A stretch of 13,975 bases of DNA from an archaeon. GTDB lineage: Archaea; Asgardarchaeota; Thorarchaeia; Thorarchaeales; Thorarchaeaceae. The stretch covers positions 1 to 13,975 of the forward strand of contig JAJRZD010000084.1 of NCBI GenBank assembly GCA_024275415.1. Direction: 5' to 3'. Below are positions 1 to 13,975 of this stretch, piece after piece. The translations under genes and the position numbers were made by a program. Position 1 is the first letter of the stretch. Each line of letters opens with the position of its first letter. Under the pieces are notes generated by a model that saw only the letters and a list, made by a program, of their open reading frames with translations, was not told where the DNA came from and did not search any database.

Positions 1-653
1 AAGCCCAGATAATCCATGACTCGTTTCTGCAATTCAAGGCCTATCGGCCCCAGTGCAGCATGGCTCCCTGTCGCTCCTGCCACTTTTCCTACGATTGACC
101 TCTCCCTCGCAGCCAGTAGCCTCTCTCTATGTCTCAGCATCTCATCCAGCCAGACAGAGAAGCGGATTCCGTATGTGATTGGCACAGCATGTTGTCCGTG
201 CGACCTCCCGATTGCGAGCAGATCCTTTGTTTCTTTAGCACGAGTGGCTAAGGCATTGCAGAGTCGGGCGACCTGAGGCAACAATATATCGAACGCAGTC
301 TTCAATTGGAGTCCTAGTGCTGTATCCTTCACGTCGTTGCTCGTAAGGCCAAAATGCACCCAGCGTGACCCGCTCCCATCACACTTCTCTGCGATGGCCT
401 CGAAGAGAGCTGCCACATCATGCTTTGTTCGTTCCTCGATTTCCATTGTCCTTGCAAGAGTGACCTTCTCTGGAACCGCCGTTTCGATGATGTCTTGGGC
501 TGCATCCATCGGTATCATCTCTAGGCCGGCTTGGGCTCTTGCCACAGCGCTTTCCACTCTCAACCAGAGGGCATGGCGAAAGTCCTCCTCGAAGATTTCT
601 ATCATCTCTGGACTTCCATATCTCCCATAGTCGATCGGGTTCACGGGCATCAT
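1..653 (-). CDS. purB: Adenylosuccinate lyase, N-terminal ~217 aa (gene continues past the left edge)
   Basis: Manual minus-strand translation from ATG 653 is open to base 1: MMPVNPIDYGRYGSPEMIEIFEE...HDVAALFEAIAEKC...WVHFGLTSNDVKDTA...IGRSHGQHAVPITYG...GKVAGATGS. These match PurB/fumarase-superfamily signatures (RYGSxEM, VHxGxTSxD, GRT/SHGQHA). AGGAG lies 7 nt upstream of the start. Confidence 0.95.
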   Translation of the reverse strand, partial: MMPVNPIDYGRYGSPEMIEIFEEDFRHALWLRVESAVARAQAGLEMIPMDAAQDIIETAVPEKVTLARTMEIEERTKHDVAALFEAIAEKCDGSGSRWVHFGLTSNDVKDTALGLQLKTAFDILLPQVARLCNALATRAKETKDLLAIGRSHGQHAVPITYGIRFSVWLDEMLRHRERLLAARERSIVGKVAGATGSHAALGPIGLELQKRVMDYLG

Positions 654-737: not shown

Positions 738-1733
738 GTGGGCACATTCGAATGTTCAAAGGAAGTGGCATCAATGGAAGTGAATGGGTATAGTAGGAGC
801 GTCCTTGGAGGTATCCTGAACATGGCCCAAGAGATGCTGACTTCTCTGAAGCCCCTCCTGAAGCGAGATGACGGACTACCATTCACAGGTTTGTTGTTTA
901 TGGATGCAAAAAACGAGGATGTGCTGACCATCAAAGCCGCATTGGCTCGAAGCAAAGTCCCCTCCTTCGATGGGAGTCTGATGCTGGGATCCCTCTTGAG
1001 TGAAATGGAATTCATCACTCAGGCATCCATTGTAGCAGATGCCGTAGACTTGCTCGTGACATCGTTTCACAGCCACGACAATCTCGGGCAGGGGAGCAGG
1101 CTTGCTAACGCTGTCGCATCCAACATCGACTTGCCATCCATCAACTTCTCAGATGAGGTGTACTCATCTCTGGGAGCGATTGCAGAACTGTTAGGGTTGG
1201 TACAGGCGCTTGGCACGCTGGACGGAAAACGTGTGGCGATATCATGGGGGTTTGGGAATCATTTTCACTCACCGAATGTGGCGCATAGCCTGCATCTCTT
1301 CCTCGCCCTATTAGGGATTGATCAGAAGATGGTCGCACCATCGAGGTTCCACTTACAGAACCGGGTACGACATCAAGCATCATCCATCGCCAAATCTTAT
1401 GGCGCAGAGATAGTACACGCTCAGGACTTTGAGGGTTCCTTTGATGATGTTGATGCTGTCTTCGTGATGAACTGGGGGTCACTGGCGGAGTTTCAGCATC
1501 CTGAACGGAATGCCGAACACGCAAGGGAGTTCCGTGATTGGTATTTCACCACAGAGAGGATTCCCACCAAGTGTAAGGTTTGTTTCTATCCACCAGTCCA
1601 ACTTGACCTGATTGCTGACAACTCCATTGTGACATCCAATGTGAAGCACAATCGAACGTGGCTCACCCGACGAATCGCCGCCATGAACGCGACTATGGCT
1701 GAAGTCCTGACCAACTCACGGACGTTTCTCTAA
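738..1733 (+). CDS. Aspartate/ornithine carbamoyltransferase-fold protein, knotted (AOTCase/SOTCase/YgeW-like) type, catalytically degenerate
   Basis: Family-like segments PSINFSDEVY, KRVAISWG, DAVFVMNWG and FRDWYFTTER, and ~331 aa from GTG 738 (ATG 774 is an alternative start). The ORF-track start at 531 overlaps purB and is implausible. STRT, HPxQ and HxLP motifs are absent. Confidence 0.8.
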   Translation: MGTFECSKEVASMEVNGYSRSVLGGILNMAQEMLTSLKPLLKRDDGLPFTGLLFMDAKNEDVLTIKAALARSKVPSFDGSLMLGSLLSEMEFITQASIVADAVDLLVTSFHSHDNLGQGSRLANAVASNIDLPSINFSDEVYSSLGAIAELLGLVQALGTLDGKRVAISWGFGNHFHSPNVAHSLHLFLALLGIDQKMVAPSRFHLQNRVRHQASSIAKSYGAEIVHAQDFEGSFDDVDAVFVMNWGSLAEFQHPERNAEHAREFRDWYFTTERIPTKCKVCFYPPVQLDLIADNSIVTSNVKHNRTWLTRRIAAMNATMAEVLTNSRTFL

Positions 1734-1776
1734 TTTCATAGTGCTTTTATCATGTGCCACCAATAGTGATGGTATC

Positions 1777-2874
1777 ATGTGGAAGATGATGAGACCTGAT
1801 GCCGTAAGGGCGTGGCGGGATCAAGAAACAGTCAGACGGCTATCCAGATACCGCGATATCATCGATGGGAAGCGGATTGCAAAGTATCTTCTTGCAAAGG
1901 ACATCTCTTGTGAAACCCCACTTGATGACTCGACCGATACGCTGTGGAAAGTCCACTCACAGTTGCATGACGAATTCGTAGGATATGTCCATGCTGTAGA
2001 TGCAGGCGAACCTCGCCATGAGACGGAGGACGGTAGGTCATTCCTTCATCTTAAGAACGAGCTCGCGTGGCGGATCCTGAGAGAATGCCATTTCTGCGAG
2101 CGTAGGTGCGGTTCAGACCGAGCGTCCGGACAGACTGGGTGGTGCAAACTGGGCCCCGAGTCACGAGTGTCATCTGCATTCCTTCATACTGGCGAGGAGG
2201 CCCCTCTCGTACCCAGCGGGACAATCTTCTTCTCCTCCTGCTGTCTGTCGTGTGCTTTCTGTCAGAACGAGGACATCTCTACGAACCCGAATGCAGGTAT
2301 GCCCGTTTCAGCGGAGGATCTTGCGAAGCTTGCAGAAAGGTTGGGTCAGGACGGGGCAATCAACATCAACTACGTAGGTGGTGACCCTGTTCCCAACACG
2401 CACACGATTATCGGGTCATTGATCCATCAGATGTCCAACATCACGCAGCTCTGGAACTCCAGTATGTATGGCTCGTCGGAGGCGATGGCACTTATCGCTG
2501 ACCTCATGGATGTGTGGCTCCCAGACTTCAAGTATGGCAATAACGAATGCGCCAAGCGACTATCGGGCGTAGACGATTACTTTGACATTGTTTCGAGGAA
2601 TCACCTGACAGCCTACCAGAATGGCGAGGTCATCATCCGGCACTTAGTGTTGCCCAACCATCTCGAATGTTGCACTTTTCCCGTCCTTGAATGGGTTACT
2701 GAGAACCTGCCGGACTGCATGGTCAATATCATGGCACAGTACAGACCTGAGCACCGAGTCCGGAGGAACCCTGATGACTACAAGGAGATATCCAGAAGGG
2801 TGAGCACTGAGGAGATGAAGTTGGCCTTCAGCAAGGCAGAGGACTTGGGGATCTATTGGAGAACTGTTAGCTGA
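1777..2874 (+). CDS. PflX-like (COG1313-type) radical SAM protein
   Basis: CxxxCxxC (CCLSCAFC, 2239-2262) in the context HTGEE...SGTIFF; N-terminal CHFCERRC...C cluster; VGGDP; WLPDFKYGN; IIRHLVLPNH; QYRP. Likely start ATG 1777 (track start GTG 1741). Confidence 0.88.
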   Translation: MWKMMRPDAVRAWRDQETVRRLSRYRDIIDGKRIAKYLLAKDISCETPLDDSTDTLWKVHSQLHDEFVGYVHAVDAGEPRHETEDGRSFLHLKNELAWRILRECHFCERRCGSDRASGQTGWCKLGPESRVSSAFLHTGEEAPLVPSGTIFFSSCCLSCAFCQNEDISTNPNAGMPVSAEDLAKLAERLGQDGAININYVGGDPVPNTHTIIGSLIHQMSNITQLWNSSMYGSSEAMALIADLMDVWLPDFKYGNNECAKRLSGVDDYFDIVSRNHLTAYQNGEVIIRHLVLPNHLECCTFPVLEWVTENLPDCMVNIMAQYRPEHRVRRNPDDYKEISRRVSTEEMKLAFSKAEDLGIYWRTVS

Positions 2875-2927: not shown

Positions 2928-2954
2928 TTACGCAGTGAATTGGAGCACATAGAA

Positions 2955-3902
2955 ATGGTCGTTCTTGTAACTGGTGGGTGTGGTTATTTAGGCTCCCATC
3001 TTGTCCGAGAGATGGCAACGAGAAGGGAGTTCGAAGGTGAGACTATCCGGCTCTTCGATAACATGCTCAGAGACCGTTATGTGTCACTTTTTGACCTACC
3101 TCGAGAAGTCAGGTTCGAGATGATTCATGCTGATATCGGCGACCTAGATAAGATACGACTGGCTATGAAGGATGTTACCACTGTTGTTGCAGCATCAGAT
3201 ATCACGAATGCTCCTATTTCATTTGAGAGAAAAGAGCTGACTTACCAGACAAATTATGTTGGAGCCCTCAATGTTTTCAACACTGCAATCGATGCTGATG
3301 TAGAACGCTATATCTATACATCCACAGCATCAGTCTATGGTTTCACACAGGATGTAGTTGACGAAACATCCCCCTGTGCTCCTCAGAGCCCATATGCTGA
3401 GTACAAGCTTAAAGCAGAGGTGGAGATGAAACGCATCTCCGAGGATAAATCATTCAGCTGGACATCACTTAGACTCGGCACTGTCGTCGGCCCCTCCATT
3501 GGGATGCGGTTTGATACGGTTCTAGACAAGTTCTCCTACTATGCATCAATCGGGCATCCTCTCACCGTCTGGGACACTGCTTTGAATGAAGCACGACCTT
3601 ATGTCGAGATCCGTGATGTTTCAAGAGCGTATATCTTCGCAGTCCAGAGCAAGAAGATGGACAATGAAATCTACAACGTGGTTGTTGAGAATCTTACAAT
3701 GAGCGATGTCATTGGAAGGATGAGAATCCATTTTCCAGAAGTGGAAGTACAGGTTTCTCCCTGCCCTGATTTAAATCAAGCAAGTTTTGTGGTTTCATCA
3801 GACAAACTCCGGAATTTGGGCTTCGAATACAAATACTCGGTAGATGACGGAATCAAGAGTCTGGCAGAGAGATTCTCAGGAGTCCATAGGTTCCCACAAT
3901 GA
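2955..3902 (+). CDS. NAD-dependent epimerase/dehydratase (extended SDR, nucleotide-sugar modifying)
   Basis: VLVTGGCGYLG (GxxGxxG), YTSTASVYG, YAEYK (YxxxK), LRLGTVVG, RPYVEIRD. Start is ATG 2955 (favoured by TATA spacing) or the track start at 2940. Confidence 0.9.
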   Translation: MVVLVTGGCGYLGSHLVREMATRREFEGETIRLFDNMLRDRYVSLFDLPREVRFEMIHADIGDLDKIRLAMKDVTTVVAASDITNAPISFERKELTYQTNYVGALNVFNTAIDADVERYIYTSTASVYGFTQDVVDETSPCAPQSPYAEYKLKAEVEMKRISEDKSFSWTSLRLGTVVGPSIGMRFDTVLDKFSYYASIGHPLTVWDTALNEARPYVEIRDVSRAYIFAVQSKKMDNEIYNVVVENLTMSDVIGRMRIHFPEVEVQVSPCPDLNQASFVVSSDKLRNLGFEYKYSVDDGIKSLAERFSGVHRFPQ

Positions 3903-3927
3903 CGAGGTGATTCTTGGTCTGGTCATA

Positions 3928-3937
3928 AGATTATAAA
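3928..3937 (+). promoter_or_regulatory. Putative TATA box for the hypC trio
   Basis: TTATAAA at 3931-3937, about 33 nt upstream of ATG 3970. Confidence 0.45.
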
Positions 3938-3969
3938 GTCCAAGCAGTGGTGTCATCTTGTGAACTATC

Positions 3970-4215
3970 ATGTGTCTTGCAGTCCCGGGTCTTGTACTAT
4001 CCATCGAAGATGATTTCGCAGAGGTCGATTTAGGAGGCGTCAAACGTAAGGTGTGTGTCACACTCCTGCCCGATCTCTCTGTTGACGAATATGTCATTGT
4101 GCATACAGGCTATGCCATCGAGAAACTGAAACCAGAAGAAGCCAAGAAGACACTTGCATTGTTCGAGGAGATGGCTTCAATGGCAGACAAGATGGAATCT
4201 CCAGAGAAGGAATAG
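3970..4215 (+). CDS. hypC: [NiFe]-hydrogenase maturation chaperone HypC/HupF
   Basis: N-terminal MCLAVPG with Cys2, AEVDLGGVKRKV, YVIVHTGYAI, C-terminal helix; 81 aa. Confidence 0.96.
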   Translation: MCLAVPGLVLSIEDDFAEVDLGGVKRKVCVTLLPDLSVDEYVIVHTGYAIEKLKPEEAKKTLALFEEMASMADKMESPEKE

Positions 4216-4218
4216 GAC

Positions 4219-4701
4219 ATGTCCACAAGATGGATAATACGAAGACACACTGTCGAGGCTCTTATTGCAGTCCTTTTCCTATTCCTCGCTTCAGCATGGA
4301 TTGGCTCACTCCCGACTCAACAATTGAACGAGAGCGGTTATACATGGGTCGCCCCGCATGTGCTTGTTGAGAATCCTGGCCGTTTTGAGGGAATGAACAT
4401 CAGTACGAAAGTCACAATAAACGGCTCCTTTTCAGATGAAAGCGGTATGTGTTACTCCTCAGAAGAGGGGATAAATCTGGTATGCAGCATCGAAGATCCT
4501 CCCCTCTCACTCGGCGACACAGTCATTGTTCGTGGTGTTTCTTATCTCGAAACCAATCAGACCTTCGTGGTCGGCGAGCTGTATGTGCTTGACACATCAA
4601 GCAGTATCATTCGATCGATTCCTGGCATTATCCTGTTCGTCATAGTGTTCTTCTCCGTCTTTAGATTGGATGTAAAAAGCCTATCATTCAAGCAGCGGTG
4701 A
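4219..4701 (+). CDS. Two-TM membrane protein with an extracytoplasmic OB-fold-like domain, unknown function
   Basis: N-terminal TM, ~95 aa beta-rich loop (RFEGMNISTKVTING...LSLGDTVIVRG) carrying four N-x-S/T sequons (NES, NIS, NGS, NQT), and a C-terminal TM (IIRSIPGIILFVIVFF). Confidence 0.6.
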   Translation: MSTRWIIRRHTVEALIAVLFLFLASAWIGSLPTQQLNESGYTWVAPHVLVENPGRFEGMNISTKVTINGSFSDESGMCYSSEEGINLVCSIEDPPLSLGDTVIVRGVSYLETNQTFVVGELYVLDTSSSIIRSIPGIILFVIVFFSVFRLDVKSLSFKQR

Positions 4702-4707
4702 TTTGTG

Positions 4708-5187
4708 TTGCCTGATATACTGACACACCTAATGATTGGAGCAGCAATTGGACTCGTCATCAGAGGAACAATCAATGATGAGAAATCCATACTTGTCCTC
4801 ACAGGTTCAATCATACCTGATATTGAGCGTCCAGTTGGTTGGGTGCTAGATTTCCTTGGAACTCCGGGTATTGAGCTAACAGAGGGCTTTCACTCTTTTA
4901 TCGGAGTCATCCTCCTCTCATTCGCCATAGCCTCATTTGTGAACAGCGAAGTAGTGACTCGAACAACAAGATTTCAGTTCGCTCTTATCGGCTCTCTTTC
5001 CCATCTGCTGATGGATATGACGATGTGGCCATGGCCTGAGAAAGGTCTCTACCTATTCTATCCTCTCAAGATCCCATTCTCATTGAATCTCTGGTGGCCG
5101 GACTTCGTGTTCTATCCATTGCTAGGCCTTTGCATTTTGGGGTTATCCATCCTTATTCTAAAGGTTGGTCATATCAGACCCAAATGA
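4708..5187 (+). CDS. YdjM/DUF457-like membrane-bound metal-dependent hydrolase
   Basis: MPDILTH...GSIIPD...FHS...SHLLMD metal-ligand pattern with hydrophobic helices. GGTGA RBS overlaps the upstream stop codon. Start is TTG 4708 (or GTG 4705). Confidence 0.8.
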   Translation: MPDILTHLMIGAAIGLVIRGTINDEKSILVLTGSIIPDIERPVGWVLDFLGTPGIELTEGFHSFIGVILLSFAIASFVNSEVVTRTTRFQFALIGSLSHLLMDMTMWPWPEKGLYLFYPLKIPFSLNLWWPDFVFYPLLGLCILGLSILILKVGHIRPK

Positions 5188-5234
5188 GGAGCGAATGATG
5201 CCCTTTGTCCTTTAGTGTGGACACGTGAATTATC

Positions 5235-6539
5235 TCATGCAGTCAAGCCGATATATTTTCGAAATCTATCCCTTTCTTCCTGCAGACTCCCCGTAGGATC
5301 TACAACTATTTTATCTGAAAGGTCATGTTTCAAAAGAGCATCTTTCATCCAAGAATGATTGACTGCAAAAACAATGACATCGCATGAGTCTACTACATCG
5401 CCTAGTTCTTTGGACAATTTCAAATCCGAGTTACTTCTTACAAGTGGGTCATAAAGTCTGAGTTCTTTACCATCTCTTCTCAAAAGACTAATCAATTCGA
5501 GTGAAGGACTCATCCTCGTATCACTCACATTTGGTTTGTAAGACACGCCCAGAATCGCGAACCGTGTTATCGCCAAGTACTCCGAATCCATTTCCGTCTT
5601 TATTCTGTGCAATACATGACTAGGCATGGTATCATTCACAGAACGAGCGGTGGGTATCAGCCTAGCGAGCTTCTTAGTTCCTTCAGTTGAATTCACTAGG
5701 ATCCAACCGTCTTTCGGAAAACAATATCCTCCAACTCCCAGCCCTGGTTCCAAAATGTCCACCCTTGGATGAAGATTAGCGAAATGAATCACCTCTCGCA
5801 CGTCGATTCCTATTTCGGTCGAAAGCAATGCGAGTTCATTTGCGAACGCAATACATGTATCTCTATATGCATTCTCTGCGAGTTTCGACGTTTCAGAGAT
5901 TTTGGATCGAGTTCGATGAATCTTATTTTCTCCGAAAACGCTCCCAAGAAAAAGATGACCCAATTCCGTAGCTCTTTCTGTCACTCCGCCAACCAATCTG
6001 TCATTCTCTTCCATCTCACAAACCACGCTCCCTGGTAGAACTCTTTCCGGACTATGAACAAACCAGAATTCCTCATCATGTGTCAGGGAAACAATCTTGC
6101 TGAAACGATGAGCCTGTCGTTCAGTAAAACCTACTGGAACTGTGCTTTCGATGATGACTAATACGGGGTGGCGTATAATTGCTGCAATACTGGAGAGCGA
6201 GCTTTCAAGATAGTCTGTAATAGGTCGCTTGTTATCATCAATTGGGCTTGGTAGGCACAGCACGAAAATGTCAGTTTCGCCTAATTCATCATATCCTGAA
6301 TGTATTTTCAGTTTTGGAAGGTATCCTCTAGCAAGTTCTGTGAGTCCCTCTTCTACCATGGGTAGTTTTCCAGTTCTGAGGTTTTCTACTAGGCTCTTGT
6401 TTAGGTCGATGCCTTCTACATGATATCCTCCTCTCAGATAGAAAAGTGCAGTTGGAAATCCGATATAACCCAATCCTACTACACATACCTTGCTCTTCTT
6501 TTGGATGATCGCATCTCGGAACTTTCGAAAACTACTCAT
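5235..6539 (-). CDS. UDP-N-acetyl-sugar 6-dehydrogenase (WecC/TviB-type, UDP-glucose/GDP-mannose dehydrogenase family)
   Basis: VVGLGYIG, IIESTVPVG, SPERVLPG, KLAENAYRD..IAFANE, GVGGYCFPKD (catalytic Cys), LGVSYKPNVSDTRMSP. Likely start ATG 6539. Confidence 0.92.
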   Translation of the reverse strand: MSSFRKFRDAIIQKKSKVCVVGLGYIGFPTALFYLRGGYHVEGIDLNKSLVENLRTGKLPMVEEGLTELARGYLPKLKIHSGYDELGETDIFVLCLPSPIDDNKRPITDYLESSLSSIAAIIRHPVLVIIESTVPVGFTERQAHRFSKIVSLTHDEEFWFVHSPERVLPGSVVCEMEENDRLVGGVTERATELGHLFLGSVFGENKIHRTRSKISETSKLAENAYRDTCIAFANELALLSTEIGIDVREVIHFANLHPRVDILEPGLGVGGYCFPKDGWILVNSTEGTKKLARLIPTARSVNDTMPSHVLHRIKTEMDSEYLAITRFAILGVSYKPNVSDTRMSPSLELISLLRRDGKELRLYDPLVRSNSDLKLSKELGDVVDSCDVIVFAVNHSWMKDALLKHDLSDKIVVDPTGSLQEERDRFRKYIGLTA

Positions 6540-6554
6540 TTTCCAATCCCTCAA

Positions 6555-6718
6555 GTCGGCATTGCCTTAACGGTTGGATGATAAAGTTATTCATAGGATG
6601 AACCGTTGTCAACCCGACATCAAAAAGAAACCGCTGTTCTCCACCTCGAATACTCAGTTTGACCATTTATGCCTCGGAAAACCTTTTCAACTTGATAACT
6701 GCTTCTTCATGGGAATAG
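6555..6718. promoter_or_regulatory. Divergent promoter region with nested inverted repeat (6569-6607)
   Basis: AACGGTT...AACCGTT arms enclosing the imperfect palindrome ATGATAAAGTTATTCAT; AAAACCTTTTCAA element about 30 nt before ATG 6719. Confidence 0.45.
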
Positions 6719-7576
6719 ATGATGAACGACACTCTTGACTCAGTCATGGCCGAGTTGAAATCGCGGATAAACACCGCTGACACCAAAACGACAGTCACAA
6801 AGTCGGAAATTGATGAACTCAAACGAAACACTGTTGTGGTTCTTCCAGCAGGGGGAAAGGGAACCCGAATACGAGCAGAAACCCATAGTGAAGAAATCAA
6901 TAAAGTGATGATACCGGTCGATGGAGTTCGAAGCATGATTGAAAAGACCATTCTCGATTATTCTTCGATTGGCATCAAGGAGTTTGTAGTCCTCACAGGA
7001 TTCTTGGCTGAGAAGGTCGAGGATCATTTGGGTGATGGTTCTAGGTGGGGTGTGAGCATCAAGTATTCAAGGGATCCTGATGGACGCAAAGTCGGCAATG
7101 CAGGGGCTATTCTGCATGCGCTGAATTCTGGGATTTTGGATGAGAATCGAACATCAATCATCCACAATCCCGATGACATGATTATTGGGATGAGCCGCCC
7201 GTATGGTGATGTGTTCCTAGAAGGACATCTAAAAGGTCTGAAAAATGGATGTATTGCAACTTTCGTTGTTGTGCCCGAAACACCCTATCAGTATTCCGGG
7301 TTGATTATCAAGAGCGGCTTTGTTCGAGATATCACCAAATACCCTCTGATCAGCATTCCTGCTCACACGGGGATTACCGTCTTCGATCCCGAAGTGTACG
7401 ACTATTTCCGAAGGCTTGTTTCGTTGGATGTGGAATCCTCCTTTGAGTCTGTGGTGTGTCCGACAATTGCAAATGAGAGCCGTCTTTTCGCAATCAATAT
7501 CCCCTCAAAACACTGGGTTCCAGTGAATGATCTGAAAGGACTTGAGCAGGCGAGAGGTGCCCTATCATCGATGTAG
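6719..7576 (+). CDS. Sugar-phosphate nucleotidyltransferase (NTP_transferase family)
   Basis: VVLPAGGKGTRIR, NKVMIPV, KEFVVLTG, FLAEKVEDHLGDGSRWGVSIKYS, GNAGAI, HTGITVF. No hexapeptide-repeat tail. Confidence 0.88.
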   Translation: MMNDTLDSVMAELKSRINTADTKTTVTKSEIDELKRNTVVVLPAGGKGTRIRAETHSEEINKVMIPVDGVRSMIEKTILDYSSIGIKEFVVLTGFLAEKVEDHLGDGSRWGVSIKYSRDPDGRKVGNAGAILHALNSGILDENRTSIIHNPDDMIIGMSRPYGDVFLEGHLKGLKNGCIATFVVVPETPYQYSGLIIKSGFVRDITKYPLISIPAHTGITVFDPEVYDYFRRLVSLDVESSFESVVCPTIANESRLFAINIPSKHWVPVNDLKGLEQARGALSSM

Positions 7577-7600
7577 CATCTGATGTCACATAAAGTCCGG

Positions 7601-7612
7601 CAAAATATAATT
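7601..7612 (+). promoter_or_regulatory. Putative TATA element upstream of the GT87-like gene
   Basis: CAAAATATAATT in the 7577-7669 intergenic region. Confidence 0.4.
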
Positions 7613-7669
7613 GAAACCGCCATTAGTATTGATACCCGATAATGAGAAAATCGAACTCTGGTGAAATCT

Positions 7670-9805
7670 TTGACAGCATTCCTCAATGAATCCCTCACAA
7701 GCTCCTTGTCCCTTTCTGATGTCCTCGAGTCTAAAGGAGTCTTGAAGATTGCAATTGCTGTCCTCGGTATCGGTAATCTCGCCCCAATCATCTTTCTAAG
7801 ATTCTTCAGTGACCAAATGTATCCTTTCTTTTTCCTGTATTATCTCTGGGTTCCTATCTATGTCCTAACAATTGCCTTGCTAATCTTCTATAACAAAGAA
7901 GGTCAGATCAAACCTGTTCTAACCTCCAGTGTGGGTATCATATGTGTGGTTGGTCTTTCACTGATAACACGGCTAATGTTTCTTGGGTCTGCGAATCACA
8001 TCTCATTGGATACGCTTTGGTATCTTGATTATGGTAAAATGATGCTTCAAGGCAAGATGCCGTATGCAGATTTCTACTTTCTCTACCCCCCTGTTTTTGG
8101 ATATTTCATATACGTCATCTCTTCTATCAATCCGTTTATCGATAGCTTCAGACTTCTGTCCTCGCTCTTTGATGCAGCGATTGTACTTGCCCTTTGGCGG
8201 ATTATGAAACAGAGAGAATTTCATTCTCACCAAGAGTTAATTCCATTGGCATACGCGCTCTTACCTATCTCAATCATAGAATCTGGATTGAATGGACACT
8301 TTGAGCCTATCGCAAACTTGACACTTCTGATTGGGTTGTGGTGGATGCTCAATCGGAAATATTCTGCCGGCTCCATTATGATCGGGCTGAGTGGCGCAAC
8401 CAAGGTCTACGCCCTTTTCCTAATGCCTATCCTTTTCTTGATAATTCCAAACAACCAACAGCGAATCAAGTCCTTGCTCCTCGCGGGTTTTACTTTTTTC
8501 CTCACATTCATCCCTTTCTCAATTCCCGTGTGGGTTCGTGGTGACATGGTTTTCCCAGGAATGCCGATGCCCGGAAACAATACGGGGTTCCTTGATAGCA
8601 CTCTTGGTTTCTTGAGCCGCATCAATTCGCTCCAGTTCTCAACATTCTCAATTCTTGTCATTTCTGCAATAGCGATTCTATGTTACAGCCTCTTCAAGTT
8701 GATACAGAGAAAGAAACACGGGGATGTTCTTTCATATCACCTGCTGTCATTTGGATTAGGTCTTATTCTGTTCACAATGGCAATGCTAGCCCTGCTATAC
8801 CCTTTCTTGGCTATTGCTTCCACAGTTCCTTGGCGATTCCCTGGTGATGTTGCATTGCTAAAAGGATCAATCGCGATTGTTGTGAGTTTGTTGATAATCT
8901 ATTCGTCTATCCTGCAATTCAAGGACAAGACAATCGTAAAGGTCGACTCCAAACAGATTGTCCTTGTTGGATCCACTCTTATGCTGCTGATACTATCTCT
9001 TGTGCGTCAGGCCTTTTTTGGATGGTACTTCTTGTGGAGTATTCCGCCACTTATTTTGATACGTGATAAGAGGATGCTACTATCCGTATTCGTATGTATC
9101 CTAATTATATATCCCACATATACTCATGATAATTTCCATGCCATTGGATATGACGAGTCAGTACTCTGGCAAGATCCGATGGAGGATGTAGGAGGATGGG
9201 ACTATACAATCAAGAACGCCCACCTTTTCGGTTCGCCTGTTAATGTAAGCGTGTCTTCGAACGAGGGTATCGGAACTTTCAGTGCTACAATCCCCTCGCC
9301 GCAAAACAGATCGTTATCAGTACGACCTTCTATTGTCTGGCACAAGAATGTAAGTATCAATCTTGAAGGAAGAACTACGCTTGTGACTGACATGTCGATT
9401 AGCTGGAATCCGTCGTTCGGGAAATGGGCTGATGTCTTCGTCAACTACAGAGGAGTCACTCCAAGTGGCTCTGAGATGAATGGGACAATACTCTCAAATT
9501 CCACGATTTACACAAACCATTCATTCTTCTTGTGGCGACACTCATTCCCAGAACTTGTTAACCGAACACCCATCACCATTACTAGCATATCCATCGAACT
9601 CTGGCCTCTCCGATCAGGCAATATGTCAATACTTGTCCGAAACATATACACAGTAAGAGGGGACATCCTCTTTTACTATCCCCTAGAAATGTTTGCTATT
9701 GCGATTCCCTTACTCATCTCCGTCTATACGCTATGGAGAGCACTGCCTGACACATTGTTCCCGCGAAGAGTCAGAGAATCTCAAATACGAGATGATGAGT
9801 CGTAA
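7670..9805 (+). CDS. GT-C fold glycosyltransferase, GT87 (PimE/AftC; DUF2029)-like, with C-terminal extracytoplasmic beta domain
   Basis: Polytopic membrane protein with SLDTLWY (loop Asp at 8009), FLYPP, GHFEP and GATKVYALFLMP. Soluble domain at ~9130-9670 followed by a last TM. GGTGA at 7660-7664 precedes TTG 7670. Confidence 0.75.
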   Translation: MTAFLNESLTSSLSLSDVLESKGVLKIAIAVLGIGNLAPIIFLRFFSDQMYPFFFLYYLWVPIYVLTIALLIFYNKEGQIKPVLTSSVGIICVVGLSLITRLMFLGSANHISLDTLWYLDYGKMMLQGKMPYADFYFLYPPVFGYFIYVISSINPFIDSFRLLSSLFDAAIVLALWRIMKQREFHSHQELIPLAYALLPISIIESGLNGHFEPIANLTLLIGLWWMLNRKYSAGSIMIGLSGATKVYALFLMPILFLIIPNNQQRIKSLLLAGFTFFLTFIPFSIPVWVRGDMVFPGMPMPGNNTGFLDSTLGFLSRINSLQFSTFSILVISAIAILCYSLFKLIQRKKHGDVLSYHLLSFGLGLILFTMAMLALLYPFLAIASTVPWRFPGDVALLKGSIAIVVSLLIIYSSILQFKDKTIVKVDSKQIVLVGSTLMLLILSLVRQAFFGWYFLWSIPPLILIRDKRMLLSVFVCILIIYPTYTHDNFHAIGYDESVLWQDPMEDVGGWDYTIKNAHLFGSPVNVSVSSNEGIGTFSATIPSPQNRSLSVRPSIVWHKNVSINLEGRTTLVTDMSISWNPSFGKWADVFVNYRGVTPSGSEMNGTILSNSTIYTNHSFFLWRHSFPELVNRTPITITSISIELWPLRSGNMSILVRNIYTVRGDILFYYPLEMFAIAIPLLISVYTLWRALPDTLFPRRVRESQIRDDES

Positions 9806-10836
9806 GTCGATAGGATCTCATAGGCCTTCCTAAGATTGGGGATGTTTTCCTCCCATGTATGGGGCGTCGGAACTGGAGCATGACCATCAATACAATCAAG
9901 AATCCCGCGAGTGTAGGATTCAATATCCGTGTCCACCGATATGTAGTCCTTGCCATCCGAATACCCTGCTGCGACTATTGGTTTCTTGAAGAGAGCATAT
10001 TCGGATAGCTTCAAGCTATCATGGATGTTGTAGAAATGCTTTGGAAAACCCGGTGTCCTCTGAGAAAGGCACAGGTCAGCTGCTGATATCCAAGTCGGGA
10101 TTTCAGTATGCATGACCCGTCCCACAAAAACAATCCCCTTCTCTCTGAATTTCTCAAGTGTTATTGGATCATATCCCAGCTTATCATAAGGTCCGAGAAT
10201 GTACAGGAATGCATCCGGTCTTCGCTTACGAACCTCAAACCACGTCTTGAGTAACAAATCGATTCCATATACCTCTCTCAGCCTTGTACCGCCGATGAAA
10301 AGCGCACTTGTCTGGTTCTCGGGAATTCCAAGCTTGTATTTTGCCTGTTGCGCCGAGATTCTCTTATAGAACCTTTTGGGAGGGTAGTTTGGAACAATGA
10401 AACACTCCGGAATATTCGCGTATTCCATTGCATGATCCAGCATCCTTGAATTTGGGGCTATGACCACCTTGGCATTAGATAGGCTCTCTGGGAGCAGGAA
10501 ATGTGCGACTTTTGCCAATGGGAGCAGTCGATTCCAAATCAGTTCTGGAACCAAGGGGACATGATAGTCATGCAAATAGGCTCGGTTCCTGATGAATGAG
10601 TGGATGAACACATCTATTCCATCAAGATGAAGGGTGTGCTCCCACCCAAAGCCCGCGAGTCCTAGGTTCAACATGTTAGTGCCCGAGCTAAGACTTACTG
10701 ACAGTGTGCTACTAGCAGTAAATGAGAACTCGGGCACACACACACTATGATGCTTCCGGAGAAATTCCATGAGATACTTGTTCCTAGGGTGTTTGATATG
10801 ATGCGACAAAAAAAGAATGGAATTCCTAAAGTTCAT
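9781..10836 (-). CDS. GT-B glycosyltransferase, family 4-like
   Basis: FIVPNYP, LFIGG, YGIDLLLK, FVGRVMHTEIPTWISAADLCL, LKLSEYALFKKPIVA. AGGAG lies 8 nt before ATG 10836. Confidence 0.82.
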   Translation of the reverse strand: MNFRNSILFLSHHIKHPRNKYLMEFLRKHHSVCVPEFSFTASSTLSVSLSSGTNMLNLGLAGFGWEHTLHLDGIDVFIHSFIRNRAYLHDYHVPLVPELIWNRLLPLAKVAHFLLPESLSNAKVVIAPNSRMLDHAMEYANIPECFIVPNYPPKRFYKRISAQQAKYKLGIPENQTSALFIGGTRLREVYGIDLLLKTWFEVRKRRPDAFLYILGPYDKLGYDPITLEKFREKGIVFVGRVMHTEIPTWISAADLCLSQRTPGFPKHFYNIHDSLKLSEYALFKKPIVAAGYSDGKDYISVDTDIESYTRGILDCIDGHAPVPTPHTWEENIPNLRKAYEILSTYDSSSRI

Positions 10837-10842
10837 TGCCAA

Positions 10843-11022
10843 CTCTCCTGACCCCTGACGATTATCTCTTCAAATATGTTCCTGCTGTGTGCAACCTGAT
10901 TCTCCTATGACCAAAGTCCCTGATTTCTGAAATGCCAAATTATATGTGTTATCATTAATCATTTTTAACACAGCAAAGGTGCTATAAAGCGATTGAATGT
11001 GAGTCCGCAGTGAGGTTAACAT
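10843..11022. promoter_or_regulatory. AT-rich divergent promoter region (GT4/GT2)
   Basis: TATAAA at 10983-10988 and GAGGT RBS at 11012-11016 for GT2; TGTGTTA-N14-TAACACA inverted repeat at 10945-10972; minus-strand ATATAATTT near 10937-10945. Confidence 0.5.
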
Positions 11023-11751
11023 ATGACAGATAGAGTCACCAGATCCCTGAGCCTTATCATCCCTGTGTATGCGGAGGGGTCTGATGTCTATCATATCCTT
11101 GAAGAACATCATGGGTACCTTCTAAGCAATTTTGATGAATTTGAGATTATCATTGCACTTGATGGCGATGATCAAGAAACTCGGGATACTATAAGCGAAT
11201 TCGAGGCGAATCATGAGAATGTGTTGGTACACCACAGCCCCCACAGGCGAGGGAAGGGAGGTGCAATTCTTGATGCTTTTCCACTTGCAAGATACCCTCT
11301 CATTGCTATTTCGGACGCGGATACATCAATCACACCTGCCGAGATAGGGAAATTAGTGGAACATCTTCTTCGTGAGCACGCTGATGTTGCTATCGGTTCT
11401 CGATACATCAAAGGTTCACGACGAGCTATCCCTTTCAAAAGATTGATTCTTAGCAGGTTCTTCAACATCCTTGTTCGGCTTTTTACTGGTCTCAATGTCA
11501 ATGACACTCAATGCGGTACTAAGGTCTTCTCAGCAAGATGTATTCCGAGTATAGTCAGGTATTTGAACGAGCCTGGATGGGCGTACGATGTTCAAATACT
11601 CTATATTCTCAAATCTATCGGAGCCCGGATAATTGAGGTGCCAATTGACTGGGTCTTTGCTGAAGGATCGAGAATGAGATTAGAAAGTGACATTCCTGAA
11701 ATGTTTCTTTCTGTTACACGGGCTCGATATCTAAAAAGATCCGATAACTGA
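11023..11751 (+). CDS. GT2 glycosyltransferase, dolichyl-phosphate sugar synthase-like (DPG synthase/Alg5-type)
   Basis: SLIIPVY, ALDG, RGKGGAI, ISDAD (DxD), AIGSRY, DTQCGTKVF, GWAYDVQIL, EVPIDW. Confidence 0.88.
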   Translation: MTDRVTRSLSLIIPVYAEGSDVYHILEEHHGYLLSNFDEFEIIIALDGDDQETRDTISEFEANHENVLVHHSPHRRGKGGAILDAFPLARYPLIAISDADTSITPAEIGKLVEHLLREHADVAIGSRYIKGSRRAIPFKRLILSRFFNILVRLFTGLNVNDTQCGTKVFSARCIPSIVRYLNEPGWAYDVQILYILKSIGARIIEVPIDWVFAEGSRMRLESDIPEMFLSVTRARYLKRSDN

Positions 11752-11794
11752 TCAGCAACGACAGACAAAGTTAATACCGACTAGCAAACTACCA

Positions 11795-11801
11795 TTTTTT
11801 T
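11795..11801 (+). terminator. Possible oligo-T archaeal terminator downstream of GT2
   Basis: T7 run about 44 nt after the GT2 stop. It overlaps the flippase 5' region, so the role is ambiguous. Confidence 0.25.
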
Positions 11802-11811
11802 GCAAGGGTGG

Positions 11812-13275
11812 ATGCAGAAGCTGACTAAAGTAAAATCCGTGACTTCGAATTTTCTATCAGTCCTGATGGGTGAGGTGCTTGCCACTGGGATTTCATTACT
11901 TACCGCTCTGACCCTAGCAAACGGACTTGGTGCAGCCCTATTCGGACTGGTTTCAATAGCAACCTCTCTTACAGAGGTTTTTTTTTCCGTTTCTGACATG
12001 GGCATGCAATCTTGGTCAATCCGCGAGATTGCGAGGCATCCCGACTCAGTCACAGGTATCGCTCGATCCCTCTCAAAAGCAAAAATCTATGTCGCCCTTG
12101 CCATTTTCTTCTCCTTCACATCCGTTTCATTCTTTGTATATGGCCCGTCTATATTCTTTGAGCTTTTCATCTTCTTTGCTTTTAGTTTGGTTGCCGATAC
12201 GTTTACGCTTGTTTTGTATTCTGTATTTCAAGCCATTGAACGAATGTATTTCTATTCAGCGTCTAGAGTTCTAGCAACCTCAGTATTCTTTATTGGATCA
12301 TTCATAACTGTTCAGGCTGGCTCTGGAATCATCTTTGTTGGCTTTTCATATATGCTTTCGAGATTCTCAGCACTAGGTTTCTCGCTTTTCGTTGCCTTTG
12401 CATTTCATTTATTCCAAGGAAACATCCTAGATGTTCCTGTTTCCAGTGTATTCAAATCCAGTGCTCCTTTTGCTGCCCTGGTCATTCTCTCTTCATTGAT
12501 TCCTCGCTCTGATGTGGTCATGCTTTCCTTTCTCTTTGTAGAACGACCTGAATTGGCTGGTGTCTTTTCCGCGGCTCTAAGAATATTCCTTGTGACAACT
12601 ATGTTAGCATCATCTCTGTTAATCGGTCTCTACCCTCTACTTTCGAGTTCGTTCGTTAGTGATAATAGCATGTTCAAATATGCAGCACAGAAGACTCAGA
12701 AGTACCTCCTGATCGGGGGTGTGCTAATGTCTCTCCTTTTTGTTTTCTCCTCCAATCAAATCATCTCATTCCTTTATAATCCTGAATACACACAAGCAGG
12801 TATCTTGTTGATGATTCTCGGAGGTGCGTCATTTCTCACCTTTCTCCGCATGTCTTTCGAATGGATCTTTAATTCCGCCAATATGCAGAACAAGGTCGTA
12901 CGATGCTCGCTGGTTCGCTTTGTTGCCAATATCATCTTCAATTTTTCAGTGTTCTATATAGGTCTCATTGGAATTGCGTTGGCTTCCGTGGTGGCTGAGG
13001 TTCTTGCAATCTTATGTTCTCTTCACTACACCCACCAAAGTGAACTATACGCCCTTCGTCCCATCGCCACAGACCTTCTGAGAGTTGCTATTGTTGCCTC
13101 TCTGACCTTGTTCATATCAAGTCTGATTATCCCATTCCTCGGCCTGTCTGGAGGGCTGCTTCAGGAAGTTGTCAAGAGCGGCTTACTAGTTATTGTGTTT
13201 GGAGCATTATCACTTATCTTTGTTATTAACAAGGATGATATCCGCCTTCTAAGAGATGCATTGAGTATCTCATGA
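11812..13275 (+). CDS. Wzx/RfbX-type oligosaccharide flippase (MOP superfamily)
   Basis: About 14 hydrophobic segments with LANGLGAALFGLVS, SDMG, RSDVVML, AGVFSAA, LYPLLS and IGLIGIALAS. Start is ATG 11812 (track start TTG 11800). Confidence 0.88.
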   Translation: MQKLTKVKSVTSNFLSVLMGEVLATGISLLTALTLANGLGAALFGLVSIATSLTEVFFSVSDMGMQSWSIREIARHPDSVTGIARSLSKAKIYVALAIFFSFTSVSFFVYGPSIFFELFIFFAFSLVADTFTLVLYSVFQAIERMYFYSASRVLATSVFFIGSFITVQAGSGIIFVGFSYMLSRFSALGFSLFVAFAFHLFQGNILDVPVSSVFKSSAPFAALVILSSLIPRSDVVMLSFLFVERPELAGVFSAALRIFLVTTMLASSLLIGLYPLLSSSFVSDNSMFKYAAQKTQKYLLIGGVLMSLLFVFSSNQIISFLYNPEYTQAGILLMILGGASFLTFLRMSFEWIFNSANMQNKVVRCSLVRFVANIIFNFSVFYIGLIGIALASVVAEVLAILCSLHYTHQSELYALRPIATDLLRVAIVASLTLFISSLIIPFLGLSGGLLQEVVKSGLLVIVFGALSLIFVINKDDIRLLRDALSIS

Positions 13276-13280
13276 CTAAT

Positions 13281-13975
13281 TCAATTGCTAACAATCTCGA
13301 GAATATCTATTGCATTTCGACTGTAGACTACTTCGAACATTTCCGAAGAATAGAACTTCCCAATGCCCGCCCCGAAGTCGGTTCTTTCTAGGTCAGAGAT
13401 GAAGATGTACCTGACTCCGTGTTCGATGAACATATCCCATACAGGTTCAAGGGTCGAGCTATTATACATCTCGATCACATCCTGATAGAAATCATTTGAT
13501 GCATCAATTCGATAGCCTGAGCTTATGATTTGTCGTCCAATCAGCGGACATATCTCCCAATTGAGTGGATGGATAAGAACCACATCGCTAGCATTCGAAT
13601 TATCATATAACCAGCGATAAGCATCAATTTCTTCTGGCGTAGCTTGAGGAACATTACCATATGCTTGCAAATGGAACTCGCCATAGTTTGCAGACCAGAA
13701 AATAGACATTGTTAGCATGGAACCAATTACTATTATGAGTAACACTCCTGCCTTTAGACGCTTCTCGTGAAGAACAATCATGCGACTACGACCATACGGA
13801 ATTTTGAATTTGGGTATCCCCCCCTGTGATACACCAACAATTGATGTAATGATTACGATTGCTTGGAATGCCATTAGAGGGTAGTAGTCTGCTGTAACAT
13901 ATCCTGTGTGAAGCTCTCTGGCTGTATTGAAGAATAGCATCATTACGGCCAACATTTCTGTTCCTACAATAAGAA
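13281..13975 (-). CDS. C-terminal part of a polytopic membrane protein with an STT3/DUF2298-like extracytoplasmic domain (start outside the window)
   Basis: The frame stays open to the window edge (..LIVGTEMLAV..). TM helices are followed by EEIDAYRWLYDNS..DVVL and HGVRYIFISDLER..F..VY, a pattern typical of the C-terminal domains of archaeal GT-C proteins. No WWDYG. Confidence 0.55.
   Translation of the reverse strand, partial: LIVGTEMLAVMMLFFNTARELHTGYVTADYYPLMAFQAIVIITSIVGVSQGGIPKFKIPYGRSRMIVLHEKRLKAGVLLIIVIGSMLTMSIFWSANYGEFHLQAYGNVPQATPEEIDAYRWLYDNSNASDVVLIHPLNWEICPLIGRQIISSGYRIDASNDFYQDVIEMYNSSTLEPVWDMFIEHGVRYIFISDLERTDFGAGIGKFYSSEMFEVVYSRNAIDILEIVSN

Follow-up and report, generated by a model that had tools for sequence, protein, structure and literature searches.

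What can a transcarbamylase fold be kept for once the residues that bind carbamoyl phosphate have been replaced? The question is raised by a gene on contig JAJRZD010000084.1 (assembly GCA_024275415.1) of a Thorarchaeaceae archaeon. The 13,975-nt stretch analyzed, here called the window, is one of the contigs of a 3.5-Mb metagenome-assembled genome (MAG) that is 92.9% complete. The gene is an uninterrupted open reading frame (ORF) on the plus strand with its stop codon at 1731-1733, and the profile of its protein family matches the window at 774-1727 with 373.9 bits. A preliminary description, made from the sequence alone, had singled it out as a candidate pseudoenzyme. The first half of that proposal has held up well: the carbamoyl-phosphate site has been dismantled, and the protein almost certainly can neither bind carbamoyl phosphate nor act as a carbamoyltransferase. 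The second half is less secure, because the cleft-lining loops of the C-terminal domain are the most conserved, and a non-catalytic protein is not established over a re-tooled one.

The former carbamoyl-phosphate site

Three motifs, Fx(E/K/N/D/A/Q)xSxRT, HPxQ, and HxLP (with a cis Leu-Pro), typify every known transcarbamylase (PMC4581275, a 2015 review of the family). In N-acetylornithine transcarbamylase (AOTCase), carbamoyl phosphate is contacted by S49, M50, R51, T52, R112, H148, Q151, C294, L295, R322, and W77 of the adjacent subunit (PMC4581275, Table 1). The same table documents the role in this binding of the beta4 Arg, which is R112 of AOTCase and R106 of Escherichia coli ornithine transcarbamylase (OTCase). 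The corresponding residues were mapped with hhalign, which aligned the family profile to a profile of the genome's own paralogues and distant library matches (probability 100%, E 1.6e-45, 318 columns; 14% identity to the paralogues). Family-wide residue counts cover 56 members. The gene and the mapped elements are as follows.

774-1733, plus strand: predicted transcarbamylase-fold coding sequence without a carbamoyl-phosphate site, 319 amino acids plus stop (ORF and translation, Pfam OTCace, AlphaFold2 (AF2), Foldseek, family profile match)
909-923, plus strand: phosphate-loop position, K46 N47 E48 D49 V50 for S-x-R-T-R (hhalign)
1062-1064, plus strand: S97 for the beta4 "IR" Arg (hhalign)
1164-1175, plus strand: S131 S132 L133 G134 for the carbamoyl-binding H-P-x-Q; family consensus A-x-Q-S (hhalign)
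1584-1595, plus strand: F271 Y272 P273 P274 for H-x-L-P; family consensus T-E-P-P (hhalign)
1671-1673, plus strand: R300, the retained carbamoyl-phosphate contact (R322 of AOTCase, R319 of OTCase; the final "ENR" Arg) (hhalign)

No family member has SxRT at the phosphate-loop site. In the window protein, the loop reads F42-M-D-A-K46-N-E-D49, with the codons of K46-D49 at nucleotides 909-920. At position 49, 53 of the 56 members have Glu or Asp, and there is no conserved Arg at position 48 or 50. It had been suggested that this acidic loop mimics bound phosphate; the counts bear out the acidic residue, though not that role. The column of the beta4 Arg is occupied by Ser (24 members), Ala (17), or Gly (9). 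Among the AOTCase contacts, only the equivalent of R322 persists (the adjacent-subunit W77 was not mapped), and R300 is Arg in 42 of the 56. The loss extends to the second substrate. In knotted enzymes, a conserved Lys at the start of the 240's loop (K252 of AOTCase) anchors it, together with a Glu or Gln ahead of HPxQ (PMC4581275). The column under K252, M232 in a phmmer alignment, holds no Lys in those family members that were inspected by eye. Near the position of AOTCase E144, the family keeps an acidic pair, D127-D/E128. In the window protein, L, F, and Y replace the semi-conserved cleft residues Q133, T271, and E272.

The preliminary description had reached a similar picture by eye. The strings that it quoted are all present (DEVY at 127-130, ISWG at 156-159, NWG at 233-235, FRDW at 253-256, TRRIA at 298-302, and FMDAKNED at 42-49), and the replacement of the carbamoyl-phosphate contacts is reproduced by the hhalign mapping and the member counts.

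Could the protein nevertheless be a carbamoyl-phosphate-dependent transcarbamylase that uses unconventional residues? The retention of R300, a Ser at position 46 in 21 of the 56 members, and the complete fold would fit. Against this stand the absence of the three characteristic motifs (PMC4581275) and of the beta4 Arg, the conserved acidic residue in the phosphate loop, and the weak constraint on the former carbamoyl-phosphate elements, which are the least constrained of the protein. This reading is very improbable. With the three motifs and the beta4 Arg lost and the old phosphate loop now carrying a fixed acidic residue, binding of carbamoyl phosphate appears practically excluded. In addition, no pathway seems to require this protein as a carbamoyltransferase, given that the genome has OTCase, aspartate transcarbamylase (ATCase), and two AOTCase-like genes, all with their motifs intact.

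Fold, relatives, and distribution

Sequence models recover the ancestry of the protein in part. The preliminary description had proposed a search with both Pfam transcarbamylase models, and the outcome is split: the C-domain model OTCace (PF00185) matches above its cut-off (35-36 bits vs. 29.4), whereas OTCace_N (PF02729) does not match the window protein. Across the family, PF00185 is matched by 29 of the 29 members tested and PF02729, weakly, by only six of them. The best NCBIfam model is N-acetylornithine carbamoyltransferase (NF003384), at 53.8 bits against a cut-off of 288. Matches to Protein Data Bank sequences by phmmer span only residues ~113-246, the top one being 2yfk (E 5.9e-06).

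Structure prediction is consistent with an intact scaffold, as had been proposed. The AF2 model, based on a 29-sequence alignment, is a full two-domain transcarbamylase (predicted local distance difference test (pLDDT) 90.7, predicted template modeling score (pTM) 0.91). The top Foldseek matches are the AOTCase structures 3kzc and 3l02 (template modeling (TM) score 0.81, ~328 columns, 15-16% identity). OTCases, putrescine transcarbamylase (PTCase), YgeW, and ATCases follow, and TM scores are 0.75-0.82 over the OTCase, AOTCase, PTCase, and ATCase structures, which places the model in the two-domain ATC-like fold. In the ESM Atlas, the model reaches a TM score of 0.85 to an AOTCase cluster. The top match in the AlphaFold DB, A0A3L6JNT7 (33% identity, TM 0.83/0.91), is itself a family member that carries the name "SRR1-like domain-containing protein". 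This name appears to be an annotation artefact, as the SRR1 Pfam domain is matched by no family member. A feature search of the ESM Atlas ranked first a Pseudomonadota cluster of 76 proteins of ~324 residues, named "aspartate carbamoyltransferase", in which OTCace_N is found in 11% of members. This cluster may be another degenerate transcarbamylase-like family.

The closest known system is thus AOTCase (ArgF' of Xanthomonas campestris; 3kzc, 3kzk, 3l02), the best match by structure and among the NCBIfam models. Both proteins have two domains and ~320-335 residues, an extended 120's loop, and a long W-x-x-x...P loop after the central Gly-rich strand, and both also have the C-terminal Arg and, from the (K)SW motif, the W. 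They differ in that the AOTCase contacts S49, R51, T52, R112, H148, Q151, C294, and L295 are all replaced here, in their low identity, and in genomic setting, this gene lying outside any arginine gene cluster. The extended 120's loop is a hallmark of the knotted group. In this family, residues 98-110 (consensus D.ETFG.GR) align with the corresponding loop of an AOTCase-like paralogue and are ~7 residues longer than in the genome's OTCase. At the place of the knotted group's proline-rich loop, a loop of matching length (W158-S172) aligns, but only one Pro in it, P167, is invariant. From these sequence hallmarks and tree position only, the family would be assigned to the knotted transcarbamylases. 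YgeW-type transcarbamylase (YTCase; 3q98, 2yfk) is also of the knotted lineage, and the physiological roles of both YTCase and the Thorarchaeota family are unknown. YTCase keeps every carbamoyl-phosphate-binding residue and binds carbamoyl phosphate (PMC4581275), whereas the Thorarchaeota family retains one such residue. YTCase also differs in having ~390 residues, with extra helices.

The motif-less proteins form a discrete group. An exhaustive HMMER search of 1.84 billion cluster representatives returned 47 proteins at E <= 1e-10. All 40 matches in the representative library at E <= 1e-14 lack SxRT, HPxQ, and HxLP at the homologous sites. Among full-length matches from E 5e-13 upward, SxRT and HPxQ are mostly at their canonical positions, and HxLP is in many. 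In a maximum-likelihood tree, the motif-less proteins are monophyletic (Shimodaira-Hasegawa-like approximate likelihood ratio test (SH-aLRT) 100), with a stem branch 1.81 substitutions per site long. They are nested in a clade (SH-aLRT 96) with the genome's two AOTCase-like paralogues, and OTCase and ATCase fall outside it.

The distribution of the family is narrow. Whole-genome profile searches (E <= 1e-45) covered 85 other genomes of the same taxonomic family and 314 genomes of other Asgard families. The gene was found in 65 of the 85, in single copy each time and with no internal stop, and in none of the 314. In 17 genomes, the gene is missing together with a PflX-like radical S-adenosylmethionine (SAM) gene that lies next to it in the window, and in three genomes the radical SAM gene is present alone. 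Ten genomes have the transcarbamylase-like gene and no radical SAM match, and most of these copies are partial or lie within ~0.5 kb of a contig end. Most apparent absences are probably assembly gaps in a region prone to short contigs, as the joint absence of the two linked genes in 17 genomes suggests. Taken together, the family is best explained as a lineage-specific offshoot of knotted (N-acetylornithine/YgeW-like) transcarbamylases that would date to the ancestor of one Thorarchaeota family. No transcarbamylase family without carbamoyl-phosphate motifs was found described in the literature, in line with the statement in the preliminary description that no catalytically dead transcarbamylase family was known. 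A literature search on PflX-like radical SAM proteins (COG1313), Thorarchaeota carbamoyltransferases, and transcarbamylase pseudoenzymes likewise found nothing relevant. Members of the family carry carbamoyltransferase labels in databases, or wrong names such as the one above, and should be left out when arginine or pyrimidine enzymes are counted in metabolic reconstructions of Thorarchaeota.

The preliminary description had recommended looking for an active paralogue in the genome. The two AOTCase-like paralogues are knotted genes in tandem on another contig (C21, ~91.0-94.2 kb), with SxRTR and HPCQ intact. One of them has HCGP for HCLP and scores 251 bits against the AOTCase equivalog cut-off of 288. 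Tandem pairs of such AOTCase-like matches are also found in some related genomes.

Selection and possible functions

The gene is maintained by purifying selection and is not decaying. The ratio of nonsynonymous to synonymous substitution rates (omega) was estimated by the method of Nei and Gojobori (NG86) in close orthologue pairs. It is 0.06-0.24 for the transcarbamylase-like gene; the radical SAM neighbor, compared in the same pairs of genomes, has 0.04-0.13. None of 66 copies has an internal stop. Regional values, pooled over eight pairs chosen as largely independent, are as follows.

C-terminal domain: omega 0.09
Hinge and former HPxQ region: omega 0.10
Rest of the N-domain: omega 0.14
Former SxRTR region: omega 0.18
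C-terminal helix: omega 0.20
N-terminal helix: omega 0.21
Former HxLP region: omega 0.25

Constraint has moved away from the carbamoyl-phosphate elements and now falls on the C-terminal domain and the 240's loop. Column entropy shows the reverse of the pattern in canonical relatives, where the SxRTR and HxLP regions rank with the most conserved; here they rank with the least conserved. Entropy within the family is lowest in the C-domain, and conservation is weakest over the first 75 residues of the N-terminal domain. At 28 positions, a residue is conserved in at least 85% of the 56 members. The polar ones include D92, D127, H171, S172, R197, D227, N233, E244, and R245. The window protein keeps 26 of the 28, and its other two changes are conservative. 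The longest run of conserved positions lies in one element.

1470-1541, plus strand: 240's-loop equivalent, N233-W256, motif NWCRLDDFxHPERNxxxAxxYRDW

Within this element, at least 85% of members share N233, W234, P243, E244, R245, A250, and W256. The pLDDT of the model drops to 75-81 over the segment, which would fit a flexible loop.

These results leave little room for a decaying, functionless remnant. Such decay might be read into the low identity of same-genus orthologues (35-44%) and the absence of the gene from about a quarter of related MAGs. Most absences coincide with that of the linked neighbor, which suggests assembly gaps. The uninterrupted copies, the low omega values, the conservation of at least 28 positions in at least 85% of members, and the confident predicted fold all speak against decay, and this explanation is scarcely credible. 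Retention under selection had been anticipated in the preliminary description, and the uninterrupted orthologues and omega values (at most 0.25 in any region) agree with it. That description had also named outcomes that would count against its proposal. Of those that can be tested computationally, neither structural equivalents in the pocket nor absent or decaying orthologues were found.

With its conserved residues in the 120's loop, Pro-loop, 240's loop, and hinge, the protein likely has a site in or near the old cleft for a ligand or partner. In canonical enzymes, the 80's, 120's, proline-rich, and 240's loops determine second-substrate specificity (PMC4581275). The family combines two marks of a pseudoenzyme: it has lost its parent family's residues for catalysis and substrate binding, and purifying selection acts across species. 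From the sequences, we infer the loss of carbamoyl-phosphate binding, a non-catalytic role, and binding by the C-terminal domain. Under the favored scenario, the family would have arisen in the ancestor of one Thorarchaeota family, along a very long stem branch, from knotted transcarbamylases. It would have kept the two-domain fold and lost the phosphate loop, the beta4 Arg, the HPxQ site, the HxLP turn, and the second-substrate Lys, with acidic or hydrophobic residues now filling the former phosphate pocket. Selection would now act mainly on the hinge, the C-terminal domain, and the probably flexible 240's-loop segment (NW...HPERN...YRDW). The old cleft and its lid would be put to new use in binding either a small ligand or a protein partner, making the protein a sensor, regulator, or scaffold that performs no group transfer. 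We give such a pseudoenzyme about an even chance of being the right description.

The balance leans towards a binder or scaffold and away from a precise catalyst, given how fast the protein changes overall and how freely semi-conserved cleft residues have been replaced in the window protein. Several observations weigh against the pseudoenzyme. The most conserved residues (D127, D/E128, H171, N233, E244, R245, and R300) belong to canonical cleft-lining loops and would suit a re-tooled enzyme equally well. Ser46, as noted, is kept in more than a third of members. The nonsynonymous rate (dN) is 2-3.5 times higher than in the radical SAM neighbor, and orthologues within the genus are merely 35-44% identical to the window protein. 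Constraint is real yet modest, with fast change outside the core.

The first of these observations leads to the main competing explanation, a neo-enzyme whose scaffold has been re-tooled for chemistry without carbamoyl phosphate. The cleft residues D127, D/E128, H171, N233, E244, R245, E/D49, and R300 would then turn over another, possibly cationic or sugar-linked, substrate. Conserved polar residues do occur in loops that set second-substrate specificity in canonical enzymes (PMC4581275). Purifying selection after a long stem branch, as here, is a textbook sign of neofunctionalization, and in this genome as in other Thorarchaeota the locus adjoins glycan genes and nucleotide-sugar genes. Yet the sequence points to no plausible catalytic dyad or metal site, and the changes of Q133, T271, and E272 to L, F, and Y in the window protein argue against a precise active site. 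The guanine-plus-cytosine (GC) content of the gene, 0.51, fits the block of the neighboring purB and radical SAM genes and not the lower-GC glycan island, and evolution is fast for an enzyme. A new enzyme is therefore a possibility that we regard as doubtful, to be kept in mind beside the pseudoenzyme.

A further role had been raised in the preliminary description, that of a non-catalytic subunit in a hetero-oligomer with an active paralogue. An inactive subunit could mix into trimers of the AOTCase-like paralogues and modulate them, by analogy with the inactive dihydroorotase (DHOase) PyrC' of Pseudomonas ATCase. The active partners that this would need are present, since the two intact tandem paralogues are the closest canonical relatives of the family. 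They are located on a different contig, not near the gene, and are only 14% identical to the family in the profile alignment. The first 75 residues of the N-domain are the fastest-changing as well as the least conserved part of the family, which weakens the case. In canonical transcarbamylases, the N-terminal domain is the trimer core. We consider mixed trimers improbable to a high degree.

PyrC' is nonetheless instructive as a comparison. Both PyrC' and the inactive DHOase-like domain of fungal CAD have a structural role after the loss of catalysis (PMC4581275). They come from the same metabolic neighborhood as the Thorarchaeota family, and in each case an enzyme fold has been selected after catalysis was lost. 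In contrast to this family, they have an amidohydrolase fold and a known partner and role; here, the transcarbamylase itself would be the dead member.

Transcarbamylases are textbook enzymes. This family discarded three of their motifs and yet was selected across many Asgard genera, which implies that the fold can be reused for another job. Its study could show, in a clean natural example, how a dead enzyme comes to be repurposed. There is perhaps a modest chance that it is the first carbamoyl-phosphate-independent member of the transcarbamylase fold with a new, Thorarchaeota-specific function, whether different chemistry or sensing through an acid-lined cleft with an HPERN lid.

The locus and its neighbors

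Features surrounding the gene bear on its start codon and on the genes with which it might work.

3-653, minus strand: 5' part of purB (adenylosuccinate lyase), divergent upstream neighbor (Pfam Lyase_1)
761-766, plus strand: Shine-Dalgarno-like AGGAAG, 7 nt upstream of ATG 774 (read from the sequence)
1737-1751, plus strand: conserved archaeal promoter-like element CATAGTGCTTTTATC, ~26-40 nt upstream of the radical SAM ATG
1777-2874, plus strand: PflX-like radical SAM gene with an N-terminal Cys motif, syntenic neighbor (Pfam Radical_SAM and Fer4_12)

The preliminary description started the gene at GTG 738, 12 codons upstream of ATG 774 and in frame. ATG 774 appears to be the better start, because AGGAAG precedes it and because the N-termini of 28 relatives align at this codon (M1); GTG 738 is set aside on these grounds as a possible but less favored start. 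A still longer frame from TTG 531 was rejected because it would overlap the start of the divergent purB gene at 653. In a related locus, the full-length purB orthologue scores 450.6 bits against the TIGR00928 cut-off of 326.2.

The radical SAM gene is single-copy in this genome. The transcarbamylase-like gene lies immediately 5' of it, on the same strand, in 21 Thorarchaeota loci, and the intergenic gap is 42-64 nt in 20 of 22 loci. Both genes occur in 56 genomes, at most 350 nt apart in 42 of them, 1-12.5 kb apart on the same contig in nine, and on different contigs in five. Such proximity could mean that the transcarbamylase-like protein is a dedicated non-catalytic partner of the radical SAM enzyme, a substrate-presenting or regulatory subunit of a two-gene module. 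The radical SAM gene, however, looks like its own, probably leaderless, transcription unit. A CTTTTATC-like box (variants TTTATC and TTTATA) lies in the gap, ~25 nt upstream of the radical SAM ATG, in 26 of the 26 Thorarchaeota loci compared, including loci without the transcarbamylase-like gene upstream. It looks like the radical SAM gene's own promoter, giving a leaderless mRNA. In every Thorarchaeota locus compared, the box can also be written as CA.AGaCCTTTTATC, ~25 nt 5' of the ATG, and resembles a transcription factor B recognition element (BRE) and TATA box.

The wider distribution of the radical SAM gene also argues against a module. Its products are 64-79% identical within Thorarchaeota and 44-56% identical in other archaea, where there is no transcarbamylase-like partner. 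In other Asgard archaea, its fixed neighbors are a proteasome subunit, a 247-aa protein, and an HHH-FKBP protein, and never a transcarbamylase-like gene; in Thermoproteota and further archaea, it has other neighbors. The two genes thus do not co-occur wherever either is present, the radical SAM gene being widespread without the partner and alone in three Thorarchaeota genomes. Insertions of 1-12.5 kb between them are tolerated, and purB upstream and hypC downstream are neighbors conserved to a similar degree in Thorarchaeota. Because of the separate promoter-like box, these separations, the wide occurrence without a partner, and the equal conservation of purB and hypC, the link supports shared synteny and not a demonstrated two-gene module. 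A dedicated partnership with the radical SAM enzyme is unlikely.

In Loki-, Heimdall-, Hermod-, and Hod-type genomes, the gene order is proteasome subunit, 247-aa protein (weak IFT52-GIFT match), radical SAM, HHH-FKBP, a HAD hydrolase, and several ATP-grasp genes. In Loki- and Heimdall-type genomes, the 247-aa protein encoded upstream of the radical SAM gene was considered as a hidden relative of the transcarbamylase-like family and rejected (hhalign probability 0.3%). No solved structure related to the radical SAM family was found at E <= 0.001. The transcarbamylase-like protein, the radical SAM protein, and three unannotated neighbors had no match among PADLOC defense-system models.

The gene next downstream of the radical SAM gene is hypC in most Thorarchaeota loci. 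In the window, a short-chain dehydrogenase/reductase (SDR) epimerase gene (2940-3902) intervenes, and hypC (3970-4215, plus strand) is the genome's sole HypC/HupF gene. The genes hypD (contig C73) and hypF (contig C43) and those for NiFe hydrogenase large subunits are on other contigs.

The GC content is 0.51 for the transcarbamylase-like gene, 0.53 for purB and the radical SAM gene, and 0.42-0.47 for the downstream glycan genes, against a genome mean of 0.47. The fall from 0.51-0.53 to 0.42-0.47 occurs across positions 2940-13975, a glycan-biosynthesis stretch that contains the SDR epimerase, a UDP-N-acetylmannosamine (UDP-ManNAc) dehydrogenase, a nucleotidyltransferase (NTP transferase), glycosyltransferases of the GT1 and GT2 types, and a Polysacc_synt flippase. 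Three ORFs have no Pfam, NCBIfam, or PADLOC match: 4219-4701 (plus strand, 160 aa), 7661-9805 (plus strand, 714 aa), and 13281-13955 (minus strand, 224 aa). Other Thorarchaeota loci have a 698-aa ORF of similar size to the second of these and at a corresponding position, with a weak GT87 match. Orthologous glycan regions in other MAGs are often on short contigs or at contig ends, which suggests that the stretch is a variable island that breaks assemblies.

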